Sequence record: OL825705.1
DNA length: 64,000 nt
From: Escherichia phage vB_EcoM_DE7
Reading direction: 5' to 3' (one strand)
This document shows positions 3,451-64,000 of this stretch, one piece after another; positions within the stretch are counted from its first letter, which is position 1; every line of letters starts with the position of its first letter. The notes beneath the pieces are model-generated. The model saw only the letters and a list, made by a program, of their open reading frames with translations, ran no database searches and had not been told where the DNA came from. The position numbers were made by a program, and so were the translations under genes.

Positions 3451-4803
3451 ATGTGGAATCCAATTGTTAATGTAGATATTACATTGAACACCGCAGGAAC
3501 TACAAGAGAAGGTTTTGGTTTACCACTATTCTTAGCTTCAACAGATAACTTTGAAGAAAGAGTACGTGGCTACACTTCCTTAACTGAAGTTGCTGAAGAT
3601 TTCGATGAGAATACTGCTGCATATAAGGCTGCTAAACAACTTTGGAGTCAGACTCCTAAAGTAACTCAGCTTTATATTGGTAGACGTGCTATGCAGTACA
3701 CTGTATCAATTCCTGATGCCGTTACCGAAAGTACAGACTACTCGATTACTGTAGCTGCTGGCGGTGGAATTTCTCAACCATACCAGTATACAGCGCAAGA
3801 CTCAGACACTGCTGAAGTAGTGTTGCAACAGTTTAAAACACAGATTGAAGCTGACCCAACAATCAAAGATAAGGTTTCTGTGAACGTAACTGGTAGTGGT
3901 GCTTCTACCACAATGGTTATTACCAAAGCTGGTGATAATGACTTTGTGAAGGTAACAACTACAGCACAGACTGTATATATCGCAAGTACAACTGCTGATA
4001 CAGCATCAACTGCTCTGGCAGCTATTGAAGCTTATTCTACTGACTGGTATTTCATCGCAGCAGAAGACAGAACTCAACAGTTTGTCTTAGCAATGGCTTC
4101 TGAGATTCAGGCTCGTAAGAAAATCTTCTTCACTGCTAACTCTGATGTAGCAGCACTGCAAGGTACAGAATTAAACAGTGCAAATGATGTTCCAGCACAG
4201 CTTGCTAAGAACATGTACACCCGTACAGTTTGCTTGTGGCATCACACAGCAGCAGAAGACTATCCAGAGATGGCATACATTGCTTATGGTGCTCCATATG
4301 ATGCAGGGTCAATTGCTTGGGGTAATGCTCAGTTAACTGGTGTAGCTGCTTCTCTGCAGCCATCTAATCACAGACCTTTGACAAGTATTCAGAAGTCAGC
4401 TTTAGATGCACGTCACTGTAACTTTATTGACCTTGATGGTGGTGTTCCAGTGGTTCGTAGAGGGATTACTTCTGGTGGGGAATGGGTTGATATCATCCGT
4501 GGTGTTGACTGGTTAGAATCAGACCTGAAAACTTCTCTGAGAGACTTGCTAATTAACCAGAAGGGTGGTAAGATTACTTATGATGATACTGGTATTACCC
4601 GTATTCGTCAAGTCATTGAAACCTCTCTGCAAAGAGCAGTCAACAGAAACTTCCTGTCATCTTACACAGTTAATGTTCCTAAAGCCTCTCAAGTTGCTTT
4701 AGCAGACAAGAAAGCTCGTATCCTGAAAGATGTTACCTTCGCAGGTGTCTTAGCAGGTGCTATCTTGGATGTTGACTTGAAAGGTACAGTGGCTTACGAA
4801 TAA
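3451..4803 (+). CDS. tail sheath protein
   Basis: 450-aa ORF followed by a 148-aa tube-sized ORF, chaperone pair and tape measure: canonical contractile-tail gene order. Confidence 0.5.
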   Translation: MWNPIVNVDITLNTAGTTREGFGLPLFLASTDNFEERVRGYTSLTEVAEDFDENTAAYKAAKQLWSQTPKVTQLYIGRRAMQYTVSIPDAVTESTDYSITVAAGGGISQPYQYTAQDSDTAEVVLQQFKTQIEADPTIKDKVSVNVTGSGASTTMVITKAGDNDFVKVTTTAQTVYIASTTADTASTALAAIEAYSTDWYFIAAEDRTQQFVLAMASEIQARKKIFFTANSDVAALQGTELNSANDVPAQLAKNMYTRTVCLWHHTAAEDYPEMAYIAYGAPYDAGSIAWGNAQLTGVAASLQPSNHRPLTSIQKSALDARHCNFIDLDGGVPVVRRGITSGGEWVDIIRGVDWLESDLKTSLRDLLINQKGGKITYDDTGITRIRQVIETSLQRAVNRNFLSSYTVNVPKASQVALADKKARILKDVTFAGVLAGAILDVDLKGTVAYE

Positions 4804-4818
4804 TAGAGGTAAATTGGA

Positions 4819-5265
4819 ATGGCTATGTATCAGCAATATTCCCCTAAAGACGTTGTATGTAGCTGGAATGGTATTGCCATTGAAGGCTTTGCTCCAGACT
4901 CATTCTTACGTCTACAGAGAACATCACCACTTATCACACCAGTTGTTGGTGCAGGTGGTCAAGTTGCTCTGACAAGAAATGCAGACAAGACAGGTACTAT
5001 TGAGATTGAGCTAATGCAGACTTCTCTCTCTAATCAGATGCTTTCTGCAATTCAAGCTAAACAAGACAATATGGAACTTGAAGAAGATATCTCTTCTAAC
5101 TTCGTAATCTACGACCCATCAGGCTCTGTTCTGGCAACTGGTATTAACGCTTGGTTGCAGGAATTACCACAGATTGAACTTGGTCGTGACCAGAACTCTA
5201 AAACTTGGATTTTTGGTTGTGAGAAGCTAGACTACACTTCTACAATTCCAGCGTCAAGTGTTTAA
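4819..5265 (+). CDS. tail tube protein
   Basis: 148-aa ORF between sheath and chaperone genes; strong terminator after it. Confidence 0.5.
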   Translation: MAMYQQYSPKDVVCSWNGIAIEGFAPDSFLRLQRTSPLITPVVGAGGQVALTRNADKTGTIEIELMQTSLSNQMLSAIQAKQDNMELEEDISSNFVIYDPSGSVLATGINAWLQELPQIELGRDQNSKTWIFGCEKLDYTSTIPASSV

Positions 5266-57954: not shown

Positions 57955-58048
57955 TTGACTCCTCGAACGGGTTTTTATAGTATTTGCATCAACGGGGAGG
58001 GAATGACCTTCCCCACTAAGTAAAACCCTTAAACTAGGAGATTCAAAA
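57955..58048 (+). promoter_or_regulatory. type-1 leader cassette: promoter (TTGACT-17-TAGTAT) + conserved hairpin leader + RBS
   Basis: Core ATCAACGGGGAGGGAATGACCTTCCCCACTAAGTAAAACCCTTAAACTAGGAGATTCAAAA ends at ATG 58049. Confidence 0.6.
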
Positions 58049-59415: not shown

Positions 59416-59510
59416 TTGACACTGATTTTTAGATATATTAAATTATACATCAACGGGGAGGGAATGACCTTCCCCACTAAGTAAAACCCTTAAACTAGGA
59501 GATTCAAAAA
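59416..59510 (+). promoter_or_regulatory. type-1 leader cassette: promoter (TTGACA-17-TAAATT) + hairpin leader + RBS
   Basis: TTGACA 59416-21, TAAATT 59439-44, conserved core 59449-59510, ATG 59511. Confidence 0.6.
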
Positions 59511-61397: not shown

Positions 61398-61491
61398 TTG
61401 CAAAGGCAAATCAAATCAAGTAAATTACTAATCAACGGGGAGGGAATGGCCTTCCCCACTAAATAAAACCCTTAAACTAGGAGATTCTAAA
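61398..61491 (+). promoter_or_regulatory. type-1 leader cassette: promoter (TTGCAA-17-TAAATT) + hairpin leader + RBS
   Basis: Conserved core 61432-61491 ending at ATG 61492. Confidence 0.6.
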
Positions 61492-61849: not shown

Positions 61850-62128
61850 ATGGCTATTATCAAAAACGTTGTAATTCCTGCAAAAACTCGCGATGACGCT
61901 CGCATCATGGCTAAAAAATTATGTGGAAAAGTGGTTGACAACGGAAAACAAGCTGCTGTAAGGTGGGGCGTGAAAGCTGATAAGCAACTAACCTTAAAAC
62001 GCAGTTCAAACAACCTTTTTAAAGGTGTAAAATCACTCGGTAAAGTGAACGTTTTTACCAAAAAAGGCTATAAAATGCACTTATCATTGATTGGAAGCAT
62101 TAAAAGATTCGGTGATGAATATCTTTAA
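61850..62128 (+). CDS. small basic hypothetical protein (92 aa)
   Basis: ORF begins directly after a type-2 leader. Confidence 0.45.
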   Translation: MAIIKNVVIPAKTRDDARIMAKKLCGKVVDNGKQAAVRWGVKADKQLTLKRSSNNLFKGVKSLGKVNVFTKKGYKMHLSLIGSIKRFGDEYL

Positions 62129-62151
62129 AAATTAAATTAAGAGGAAACATC

Positions 62152-62484
62152 ATGCTAATGATGGGAACCACTGCAATCATCGCCATTATAGCCCTTTATA
62201 AGGCTTACAGCGCCTACAATCTGGCAAGTAAGGCAATCACGCAACAGGTTAATAATAGCCTTGTAATGAGCTTTCTCGAGCGTTTAAGCGATGAGCAATT
62301 GAAACGGCTAGAAATGAGTTTCAGATTCAAAGCGAAAACCTATCAGATAAGTGGCATCTTAAAAGATGATTTTCAGTTGGTTGATGATTATAACTCACTG
62401 ATAAATGCTTTAAATATCAGTGACTTAAAAGACTATTACGCTGTAATTGTTCAAGAAATGAGCAAACGAAAAAATTCCTCTTGA
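62152..62484 (+). CDS. small hypothetical protein with N-terminal hydrophobic segment (110 aa)
   Basis: ORF with SD AAGAGGAAA. Confidence 0.4.
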   Translation: MLMMGTTAIIAIIALYKAYSAYNLASKAITQQVNNSLVMSFLERLSDEQLKRLEMSFRFKAKTYQISGILKDDFQLVDDYNSLINALNISDLKDYYAVIVQEMSKRKNSS

Positions 62485-62574
62485 TTTTGGTTTTAAAAGC
62501 AAGTAAATTACTAATCAACGGGGAGGGAATGGCCTTCCCCACTAAATAAAACCCTTAAACTAGGAGATTCTAAA
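62481..62574 (+). promoter_or_regulatory. type-1 leader cassette: promoter (TTGATT-17-TAAATT) + hairpin leader + RBS
   Basis: Conserved core 62514-62574 ending at ATG 62575. Confidence 0.6.
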
Positions 62575-63105
62575 ATGAACAAGTTCAAAGCTATCAACTT
62601 CATCCGCTCAAATAGTGTTATGTCAAAACCTGTTAAAGACACTTACGAATTCCGTTGTAATGGTGTACACTTTGCAACCATCACCAAATCAGAAAACGGG
62701 GCTTATTACATCCATCGCCGTAATGTTGCAACTGTTGTAGTCTCTCATTTTATGCAAGCGGTCGCGGAACTTCTCCCGATGTTTTTGGGTCTTTACTTGG
62801 ATGAGTGTAAAAACGTTCACAATCACGTTAAAAACCTTTTAAACGGTTATAAAATGGCTTACGAGCGTTCTCTCAAGTACTTAAACAAGTTTTATAAAGC
62901 CCCTGTAAACACTGTTTCAATGGCTTACAGTGTAAGCGGTGAGCTGGTTAGTCTCTTCGAAGTGGAAGAAATTGAACTATATAACTCACGTCCTAGCGGT
63001 TACGCTAAAACCATCGGCGAAGGCTTAACGTTCAATATCAAGAATTTAGAAAAAACTTTAAAAGATATTGAAAAAGATATTGACGAAACAATCAAAAATC
63101 TGTAA
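62575..63105 (+). CDS. hypothetical protein (176 aa)
   Basis: ORF begins directly after a type-1 leader. Confidence 0.45.
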   Translation: MNKFKAINFIRSNSVMSKPVKDTYEFRCNGVHFATITKSENGAYYIHRRNVATVVVSHFMQAVAELLPMFLGLYLDECKNVHNHVKNLLNGYKMAYERSLKYLNKFYKAPVNTVSMAYSVSGELVSLFEVEEIELYNSRPSGYAKTIGEGLTFNIKNLEKTLKDIEKDIDETIKNL

Positions 63106-63173
63106 ATTGCCAATCAACGGGGAGGGAATGACCTTCCCCACTAAGTAAAGTCCTTAAACTAGGAGATTCTAAA
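63080..63173 (+). promoter_or_regulatory. type-1 leader cassette: promoter (TTGACG-17-TAAATT) + hairpin leader + RBS
   Basis: -35 lies inside the 3' end of the upstream gene; conserved core 63113-63173 ending at ATG 63174. Confidence 0.6.
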
Positions 63174-63422
63174 ATGGCAACTATCCGCGCAATTGTAAAT
63201 TCTTATGGCTGCTACACTCTGGATGTTAAATTTGATATTGGTGGAACTGATGAATGCTTTTCATTAGTGAAGACGGTTATCAAGCAAGTTATCCCAGATT
63301 ATAACCCTACTGATGACTTCTGGAAAGATGCCGTGAAAGAGGCGTTAAACGATGAATACCATTACCATTACTGGGGTGATTTGATTGTATCCCTGTACTA
63401 CGATAAAAAAGGCACTAACTAA
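63174..63422 (+). CDS. small hypothetical protein (82 aa)
   Basis: ORF begins directly after a type-1 leader. Confidence 0.45.
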   Translation: MATIRAIVNSYGCYTLDVKFDIGGTDECFSLVKTVIKQVIPDYNPTDDFWKDAVKEALNDEYHYHYWGDLIVSLYYDKKGTN

Positions 63423-63473
63423 TCAACGCAACGGGGCTAAAATAGCCCCAGATACCTTTAAAGCCCCTTTATA

Positions 63474-63646
63474 CTGATTCGATAGTGATTCAGGTAATGA
63501 ATTACCTTCATAGAATCTATCTCATAGGGGCTTTTTTACGTCCTATCAAATCCCTTTCCTTTCCCTTTCCAGAATCTATCCCACTGATTCGATAGTGATT
63601 CAGGTAATGAATTACCTTCATAGAATCTATCTCATACCTTAAAAAG
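63474..63646. repeat. two copies of a ~53-bp element with internal palindrome, separated by a TCCCTTTCC tract
   Basis: CTGATTCGATAGTGATTCAGGTAATGAATTACCTTCATAGAATCTATCTCATA at ~63474-63526 and ~63584-63646; first copy sits between AAAGCCCC and GGGGCTTTTTT. Confidence 0.6.
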
Positions 63647-63727
63647 CAATAACTCTATATCTTACTCTATAGCCTTTTATTAAATCAACTTAAAGATAAG
63701 CCCATAAACCGAAGGAAAGGGCAACAC

Positions 63728-64000
63728 GTTTAAACGCTCTATAAAGCCCTATAACGGCCTTATTAACCTGACTTAAGGGATTGCATTAACTCACGTTTAA
63801 ACGCTCTATAAAGCCCTATAACGGCCTTATTAACCTAACTTAAGGGATTACATTAACTCACCATTAAAAACGCTCTATAAAGCCCTATAACGGCCTTATT
63901 AACCTAACTTAAGGGATTACATTAACTCACCATTAAAAACGCTCTATAAAGCCCTATAACGGCCTTATTAACCTAACTTAAGGGATTACATTAACTCACC
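63728..64000. repeat. tandem direct repeats, 67-69 bp unit, at least 4 copies, running to the window edge
   Basis: Unit AAACGCTCTATAAAGCCCTATAACGGCCTTATTAACCTRACTTAAGGGATTRCATTAACTCAC starting ~63732, 63799, 63868, 63937. Confidence 0.7.

Follow-up and report, generated by a model that had tools for sequence, protein, structure and literature searches.

A putative subterminal spacer of a Felix O1-type Escherichia phage, with hairpin-module insertions and an amplified 69-bp unit

The gene-free DNA at the right end of the 64,000-nt stretch of Escherichia phage vB_EcoM_DE7 analysed here (OL825705.1; hereafter, the window) appears to be a subterminal spacer in the right arm of a Felix O1-type genome. 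It would lie between the last rightward gene and a terminal repeat (DTR) of ~0.6 kb, adjoining the physical genome ends without containing them. We consider it likely that the whole region is jointly explained by such a spacer, by insertions of a hairpin module in terminator T2 and at a second site, and by a conserved unit that has been amplified in this genome alone. The anatomy of the region, its synteny, its place with respect to the relatives' DTR, the polymorphism of the inserted element and the single unit in the relatives examined were all seen directly.

Results

Position of the region relative to the terminal repeat

Over 20 kb, the window shows 93-95% nucleotide identity to Felixounavirus genomes (Felix O1-like myoviruses), and the gene order of its right part is conserved in these relatives. 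The homologue of its last small gene is annotated in UAB_Phi87 as similar to FelixO1p049, and from 63422 to the window end the ORF list contains no ORF of at least 40 aa. About 1.7 kb of gene-free DNA comes after the small rightward genes in relatives, and the genes beyond it form a block on the opposite strand, so that two transcription units converge here. In Felix O1 the corresponding place is the gene 23/24 boundary, where terminator t23 (gcccctatttaaaggggctttttt) is located (Table 2 of PMC3185647). The last small genes, the T1 and T2 hairpins, the conserved blocks and the 69-bp unit (Table 1) follow each other in the same order as in relatives.

Table 1. Features at the right end of the window (positions are those of the whole 64,000-nt stretch)
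Feature	Position	Strand	Remarks
PeSL-like cassettes	57990-58019, 59451-59480, 61433-61462, 62516-62545, 63115-63144	+	each with ~60 nt either side
Last small rightward gene	63174-63422	+	82 aa; homologue of the 249-bp CDS preceding the gene-free region in relatives
T1 stem-loop GGGGCTAAAATAGCCCC	63433-63449	+	without U-tract; conserved in relatives
T2 intrinsic terminator, stem AAAGCCCCT/AGGGGCTTT and T-run	63460-63537	+	corresponds to Felix O1 t23; 54-nt element in loop
T2 left arm AAAGCCCCT	63460-63468
T2 right arm AGGGGCTTT and T-run	63526-63537
Long-form nested palindrome, copy 1 (site A, T2 loop)	63473-63526	+	repeat search, alignment
TCCCTTTCC pyrimidine tract	63551-63570	+	between the two element copies
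Part of tract complementary to AAGGAAAGGG	63552-63561
Long-form nested palindrome, copy 2 (site B)	63583-63636	+	repeat search, alignment
Conserved non-coding block AAAGCAATAACTCTATA..TACTCTATAG...AAGCCCATAA	63643-63711	+	near-invariant across three genera (alignment)
AAGGAAAGGG, complement of the tract	63712-63721
Tandem array of the 67/69-bp subterminal unit	63732-64000	+	period 69, 3.9 copies, 97% matches, TRF score 496

The records of D4 and Ro111lw both begin and end within this spacer and carry exact DTRs of 581 and 613 bp, respectively. Both were analysed with PhageTerm (PMC6454146, PMC11737134), and a DTR of 613 bp has been reported for Ro111lw (PMC6454146). The DTR boundaries of these two phages are identical, with ...ACGTAAATGCTA/GCCCCCTTAAC... 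at the first and ...GTTAAGGGCTACC/AAGCAG... at the second (the slash marks the boundary; the latter continues AAGCAGATA), and the record of ZX4221 terminates at the same base. The same motifs are found in Felixounavirus, Mooglevirus and Suspvirus loci, both sequences being invariant across the three genera. In UAB_Phi87 they delimit 614 bp, and the DTR of this phage as measured by Bal31 digestion and run-off sequencing is 608 bp (PMC4837284). Based on the boundary motifs, the DTR is 567-638 bp long in the 32 loci surveyed, and the distance from the start of the 69-bp unit to the start of the DTR is 239-266 bp in 12 aligned relatives and 227-295 bp in all 32 loci. In relatives with mapped or exact DTRs, the right genome end lies ~570-640 bp beyond the left end.

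Neither DTR boundary motif occurs in the window, which stops at 64000 inside the array. By synteny, the DTR of this genome would start ~180-200 bp past 64000 if the fourth unit is the last one. Its left genome end, GCCCCCTTAACATTTTC, is predicted ~240-265 bp after the start of the last unit, and the predicted DTR would be ~570-640 bp long and end with GTTAAGGGCTACC. The first-pass annotation had named a genome terminus among several possibilities, and this stands in so far as the region lies beside the physical ends; the ends themselves fall outside it, the left end being found at the above 239-266 bp past the unit start in relatives with mapped or exact DTRs.

Conserved blocks and motif zones upstream of the DTR

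The first ~45 nt of the 69-bp unit (AAACGCTCTATAAAGCYCTATAACRGCCTTATYAACCTAACTTAAG) hardly vary across Felixounavirus, Mooglevirus and Suspvirus, and the same holds for a few adjacent blocks. Short oriented motifs are dense between T2 and the DTR, with TTAAAAG at 15.3/kb and TATAAAG at 7.7/kb compared with 0.6 and 0.2/kb in the coding DNA of the window, and the DTR contains TGTTA[AG] at 32/kb compared with a background of 0.9/kb; all of these are strand-specific. In the DTR of HK3 (locus L002, 5112-5703) and its homologues, TGTTAAG/TTGTTAG-type motifs lie on one strand with ~10-11-bp phasing. Beside the DTR start, the alignment shows an 11-bp motif (ACGTAAAAGnn/AGTTTAAAAGTT) whose copy number varies between phages, and just upstream of the unit there is a small palindromic indel, TTGGTATTGTTACCAA, seen only in ZX4221 (L001, ~5158-5181) and REP8 (L005, reverse strand). 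The spacer seems to accumulate small palindromes and short repeats.

A TCCCTTTCC tract had been noted in the first-pass annotation between the element and the tandem repeats, and it is indeed present, between the two copies of the element. Ten of its nucleotides are complementary (10/10) to AAGGAAAGGG, located 150 nt downstream, and the tract and its complement bracket element copy 2 and a conserved block. A conserved long-range stem formed by this pair was considered and rejected, the pairing being present in HK3 and Ro111lw, weak in UAB_Phi87 and missing in the Moogle and EP1 lineages.

Phages T7 and T3 possess pac elements and short-repeat arrays beside their terminal repeats. By analogy with these phages, and from the position at the junction and the conservation described above, we infer that the conserved unit and the motif zones may serve as cis sites for concatemer cutting and DTR regeneration, the unit being one of several strongly conserved blocks in an oriented T(T/A)TAAAG-type motif zone that would lie just upstream of the DTR. 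It is also conceivable that the array and the palindromes together make up a pac-like packaging recognition site, where terminase or an accessory protein binds the unit and/or the hairpins and cuts at the adjacent DTR boundary. Such a site would be 180-450 bp upstream of the conserved left DTR boundary, within a zone of oriented short repeats, and few non-coding blocks are as conserved across the three genera as the unit. However, relatives carry one unit, which leaves the multiplicity unexplained, and the 54-nt element is missing from many viable relatives including the DTR-mapped D4, Ro111lw and UAB_Phi87 (sites A and B). The 69-bp unit is both placed beside the concatemer junction and conserved among relatives, whereas the 54-nt element does not combine these properties, and we regard a pac-like role for array and palindromes together as doubtful.

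Terminator hairpins T1 and T2

The rightward transcription unit would end at the T1 stem-loop and at T2, the counterpart of Felix O1 t23. T1 lines up with the stem-loop of the promoter/stem-loop cassettes found between genes. T2 has a GC-rich stem directly abutting a U-tract (AAAGCCCCT...AGGGGCTTTTTT), and element copy 1 is lodged between the two halves of this terminator-like stem, as the first-pass annotation had claimed and as both the coordinates and the predicted fold confirm. With copy 1 in place, T2 folds as one extended hairpin (dG -28.0 kcal/mol, z -4.4), and folding T2 together with the upstream hairpin gives a dG of -41.1 kcal/mol (z -6.1). The loop of T2 in the window holds the 54-nt element and is thus outside the range of 3-8 nt for short terminator loops, and the terminator scan makes no call here because the loop exceeds its limit.

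In HK3, T2 is a plain hairpin (CAGCCCCTTTCCAATAGGGGCTTTTTT) and is called a terminator by the scan. Across relatives, the T2 loop is a plain 7-nt loop (HK3 and Felix O1 t23), the 23-nt short form or the long form of the element, with predicted dG values of -12.5, -21.7 and -28.0 kcal/mol, respectively, and the GC stem and U-tract are kept. Judging from these predicted folds, termination at T2 is probably retained with the element inserted.

Structure and distribution of the hairpin module

The element, ACTGATTCGATAGTGATTCAGGTAATGAATTACCTTCATAGAATCTATCTCATA, had been described as a ~53-bp sequence present twice; it is 54 nt long, its two copies in the window are 100% identical, and it contains the inner palindrome AGGTAAT-GA-ATTACCT as noted before. 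None of 100 shuffled controls gave any match to the 54-nt repeat. The element is a nested derivative of a shorter module of ~25 nt, in which a perfect 8-bp stem (ATAGATTC/GAATCTAT) closes a GATA loop and is followed by a CTCATA tail. The long form (51-54 nt) corresponds to this short form with an additional inner 28 nt, TGATTCAGGTAATGAATTACCTTCATAG, bounded by ATAG...ATAG. The ends of the module, GATTCGATAG and CTATCTCATA, match as inverted repeats at 7 of 10 positions when read directly from the sequences.

The state of each site was scored from a 12-phage alignment from T1 to the DTR, a search for the short form and a survey of 32 loci. Across Ounavirinae, sites A, B and C are each empty, short (~23-25 nt) or long in a patchy manner, and site E has the short form only. 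At site A, in the T2 loop, the long form is found in the window and EP1, and the short form in ZX4221, pinkbiff, Shy, L017 and L024. Site B, located after the TCCCTTTCC tract, carries the long form in the window, Shy, NBEco004, Moogle and SflM_004 and the short form in REP8, EP1, L032 and L034, and is empty in HK3, pinkbiff, D4, Ro111lw and UAB_Phi87. At site C, ~130 bp after the unit and in inverted orientation, the REP8 group has the long form, and UAB_Phi87-like loci have a short state that is a divergent inverted copy, scored from the 12-phage alignment. Site E is the loop of the left-arm terminator past the DTR (AGCCCCTTAAAATG...GGGGCTTTTTATTGAG), where the short form occurs in Moogle, SflM_004, EP1 and three IMG/VR contigs, and the long form in none. 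The short module at site E was seen in L007, L009, L018, L022 and L023, and in Moogle (L006), where the stretch 4066-4106 bears no annotation other than 'terminator'. In its AGCCCC/GGGGCT stem, the left-arm terminator matches T2. No element copy is present at the scorable sites of D4, Ro111lw and Felix O1-like loci, and therefore the element is dispensable.

The long form was found in 14 of ~280 related phage records (~5%) and the short form in 81 records (~30% of relatives). All records with either form are Felix O1-type, except for one marginal match to a marine virus which is probably due to chance, and two long copies in one genome were seen only in the genome of the window. The long form is absent from 5,426 E. 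coli genomes searched by BLAST, from GTDB species genomes and from metagenome contigs; within IMG/VR, it is found in Moogle only. Literature searches with the sequence of the element, and on palindromic elements of Felixounavirus, found nothing relevant, and both the hairpin module and its nested long form appear to be undescribed so far.

Filled and empty sites of the module in phage and chromosomal DNA

The short module also occurs outside the phage group, in chromosomal, probably prophage, DNA of E. coli beside a tape-measure gene (L019-L021 and L040) and in an E. albertii contig (L016, NZ_BBMY01000186.1, 462-484). The E. coli homologue of the latter locus (L041, YD786), whose homologous region adjoins methyltransferase and HNH endonuclease genes, provides a clean pair of filled and empty sites, ttgacta-ATAGATTCGATAGAGTCTATCTCAT-aggtcaa in L016 versus ttgactg/aggtcaa in L041, and the insertion in L016 sits in the loop of a TTGAC/GTCAA hairpin. 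A second site is also polymorphic, the module being present in L021 and L040 and absent in L019 and L020. The two module sites of E. coli flank the terminator upstream of the tape-measure gene. Among the 5,426 E. coli genomes, the L021 context is found in 458 and the L016 context in 238. The scans placed the module in enterobacterial phage, probably-prophage and similar chromosomal DNA and nowhere else. Of the seven distinct module sites, three are loops of pre-existing hairpins, and neither the filled/empty pairs nor sites A-E show a consistent target-site duplication of fixed length.

The suggestion made earlier that a small mobile insertion resides in the terminator stem is supported by the plain, short and long alleles of T2 and by the recurrence of the module at several unrelated sites, where conserved flanks enclose it in some alleles and not in others. 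Judged by its distribution, the module behaves as a small copy-and-paste hairpin element; no strand bias was found. Such an element would be tiny and non-autonomous, and hairpin loops and spacer DNA may either attract it or simply tolerate it. In this genome, the long form would have been copied in twice, once in the T2 loop and once 110 bp downstream, and would be a tolerated passenger that lengthens the terminator stem-loop. It is possible, and we put it forward tentatively, that the module and its nested derivative represent an ultra-small mobile hairpin family common to virulent Felix O1-type phages and probable-prophage regions of E. coli and E. albertii. Perhaps they are inserted by an HUH/Y1-type single-strand or a template-switch process, without target duplication and with a preference for terminator and hairpin loops, in which case the family would remodel phage 3' ends as well as DNA adjoining the packaging junction.

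The main rival to a copy-and-paste element is that the 25/54-nt hairpin is a functional module, such as a terminator enhancer, an mRNA 3'-end stabiliser or a protein-binding site, which is spread by homologous recombination and kept by selection. Recombinational spread would yield a similar patchy pattern, and it would fit with a functional module that it lies in the loops of both terminators flanking the terminal region (sites A and E) with identical orientation relative to transcription, that the element roughly doubles the predicted hairpin stability, and that the module adjoins a terminator in the E. coli chromosomal, probably prophage, region. However, a module kept by selection would hardly be expected in only ~30% (short form) or 5% (long form) of relatives, outside terminators and inverted (sites B and C), as precise 25-nt filled and empty alleles within otherwise conserved flanks, or as degenerate remnants such as that at site B of HK3 and the second copy in L040. 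A selected functional module is, in our judgement, an unlikely explanation.

Tandem amplification of the 69-bp unit

The first-pass annotation had reported at least four near-identical tandem repeats of 67-69 bp running to the window end, and this was confirmed, with start-to-start spacings of 67, 69 and 69. Since copy 4 is cut by the window end, the four copies seen are a lower bound. Copies 2-4 are identical to each other, and copy 1 differs from them by 3 substitutions and a junction shorter by 2 nt.

By comparison, the unit is single-copy in 32 of 32 surveyed loci and in 17 of 17 IMG/VR contigs. A two-unit query matched 249 phage records, the best 60 of the 249 all spanning just 78-98 bp, and a query spanning the junction matched 211 records, the best 12 of the 211 including no single-piece match. 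The generic two-unit pattern is absent from IMG/VR and all fetched loci, and the window-specific junction from IMG/VR and JGI metagenomes. The repeat copy number does differ between phages, with four seen here versus one in the relatives examined. Considering this single unit in relatives and the identity of copies 2-4, the amplification is private to this genome and recent.

In the alignment, the ~70 nt past the unit in HK3 and UAB_Phi87 are an old degenerate second copy, which shares TTAAA.C.CT.TATAAAGC...GCCTTA...TAAGGG with the unit. The junctions in the window read CTCACGTTT/AAACGC and then CTCACCATTAA/AAACGC, and likely reflect unequal recombination or slippage between the similar starts of the unit and of the degenerate copy. 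Amplification probably took place between TTTAAACGCTCTATAAAGC at the 5' end of the unit and CTTAAAAGCCCTTTATAAAGC at the similar start of the old degenerate neighbour copy, and the extra copies may be neutral or may compensate for genome length. As RNA, the unit folds no better than shuffles on either strand, which makes a structured RNA unlikely. Rfam 15 gave no credible match in window 62000-64000 or in the HK3 and Shy spacers, and a sigma-70 promoter scan showed neither an excess nor any hit within the unit.

The array might be an assembly artefact of a genome with one true copy, considering that more than one copy is seen in no other genome and that the array, of at least 269 bp, exceeds the length of typical short reads. 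However, the 3 substitutions in copy 1 and its junction of 67 instead of 69 bp are typical of real successive duplications and not of collapse or expansion by an assembler, so that an artefact seems very improbable. It seems likewise very improbable that the repeats are iterons of a replication origin or an operator array for an early regulator: there are at least four near-identical direct repeats in a gene-free region, and other short oriented repeats occur nearby in relatives (TGTTAAG, ~11-bp phasing), but each relative examined has one unit and hence no conserved iteron array, the units are 67-69 bp rather than 17-22 bp, the composition profile of HK3 shows no marked AT-rich dip (GC 0.31-0.40 throughout), no initiator gene lies alongside, the flanking genes being small ORFs that end at terminators, and transcription units converge on the region from both sides and end in terminators. 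The origin and the regulator-binding array proposed in the first-pass annotation are thus not borne out: the single unit of the relatives examined argues for a private amplification and not for a conserved iteron set, and the 54-nt element is absent from many viable relatives.

Discussion

Phages T7 and T3 have ends in which a short DTR is flanked by short-repeat arrays and pac elements, with a hairpin-forming inverted repeat near the concatemer junction. Relatives of the window resemble them in having exact, non-permuted DTRs of a few hundred bp, and the group shares with them oriented A-rich short repeats beside and inside the terminal repeat (here T(T/A)TAAAG and TGTTAAG) and palindromes just upstream of the junction. 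Unlike T7 and T3, Felix O1-type phages are unrelated myoviruses with no phage RNA polymerase and no sequence similarity to them, and the cis sites proposed here are candidates.

Among Felix O1-like phages with short DTRs, UAB_Phi87 (608 bp), Ro111lw (613 bp) and Felix O1 share with the window the same gene order, t23 and the blocks upstream of the DTR (PMC4837284, PMC6454146, PMC3185647), and 'short terminal repeats' have been reported for Felix O1 (PMC3185647). The spacer itself is not described in these three papers. In contrast to these phages, the genome of the window alone has at least four tandem units and two long-form elements.

Like REP/BIME, ERIC and Correia elements and the MITEs common to viruses and hosts (PMC11602168), the module is non-coding and palindromic, and occurs at multiple sites with filled and empty alleles. 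It also resembles small bacterial repeats and MITEs in being intergenic, near terminators and common to phages and host chromosomes. Unlike MITEs and REP elements, it is far smaller (25 nt, or 51-54 nt in the long form), AT-rich and present at 0-3 copies per genome, and unlike MITEs it has neither a consistent target-site duplication nor a known partner transposase. The PeSL cassettes of T4-type phages (PMC2839356, PMC4122927) are likewise near-identical stem-loop modules tied to indels in the intergenic DNA of virulent myoviruses. In contrast to these cassettes, the 25/54-nt hairpin lacks a promoter part, is not a flank of gene cassettes and goes into the loops of hairpins already present. 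Five near-identical intergenic PeSL-like cassettes (PMC2839356, PMC4122927) are themselves present between the small early genes of the window, each built of a sigma-70-like promoter (TTGACx-N17-TAAATT/TATAGT), a stem-loop (GGGGAGGGAATG(A/G)CCTTCCCC), a TAGGAGA RBS and an ATG.

The DTR ends of the Felix O1 group and the terminator annotated in Felix O1 are already known, and tandem amplification in spacer DNA is ordinary. The candidate mobile element of small size is the modestly interesting new part, and current understanding is not overturned by it. For annotation, the region should be treated as a spacer that lies, by synteny, just inside the right terminal repeat and not as a genome end, and the conserved boundary motifs let the DTR be located in any relative from its sequence. 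The blocks conserved across three genera are obvious candidates for the cis sites of DTR packaging in a phage group used in therapy, and the natural four-copy variant offers a ready-made test case for such sites. If the module is truly mobile, its 25 nt would make it an unusually small mobile element, and it would also be a marker of exchange between virulent phages and probable prophages of E. coli.
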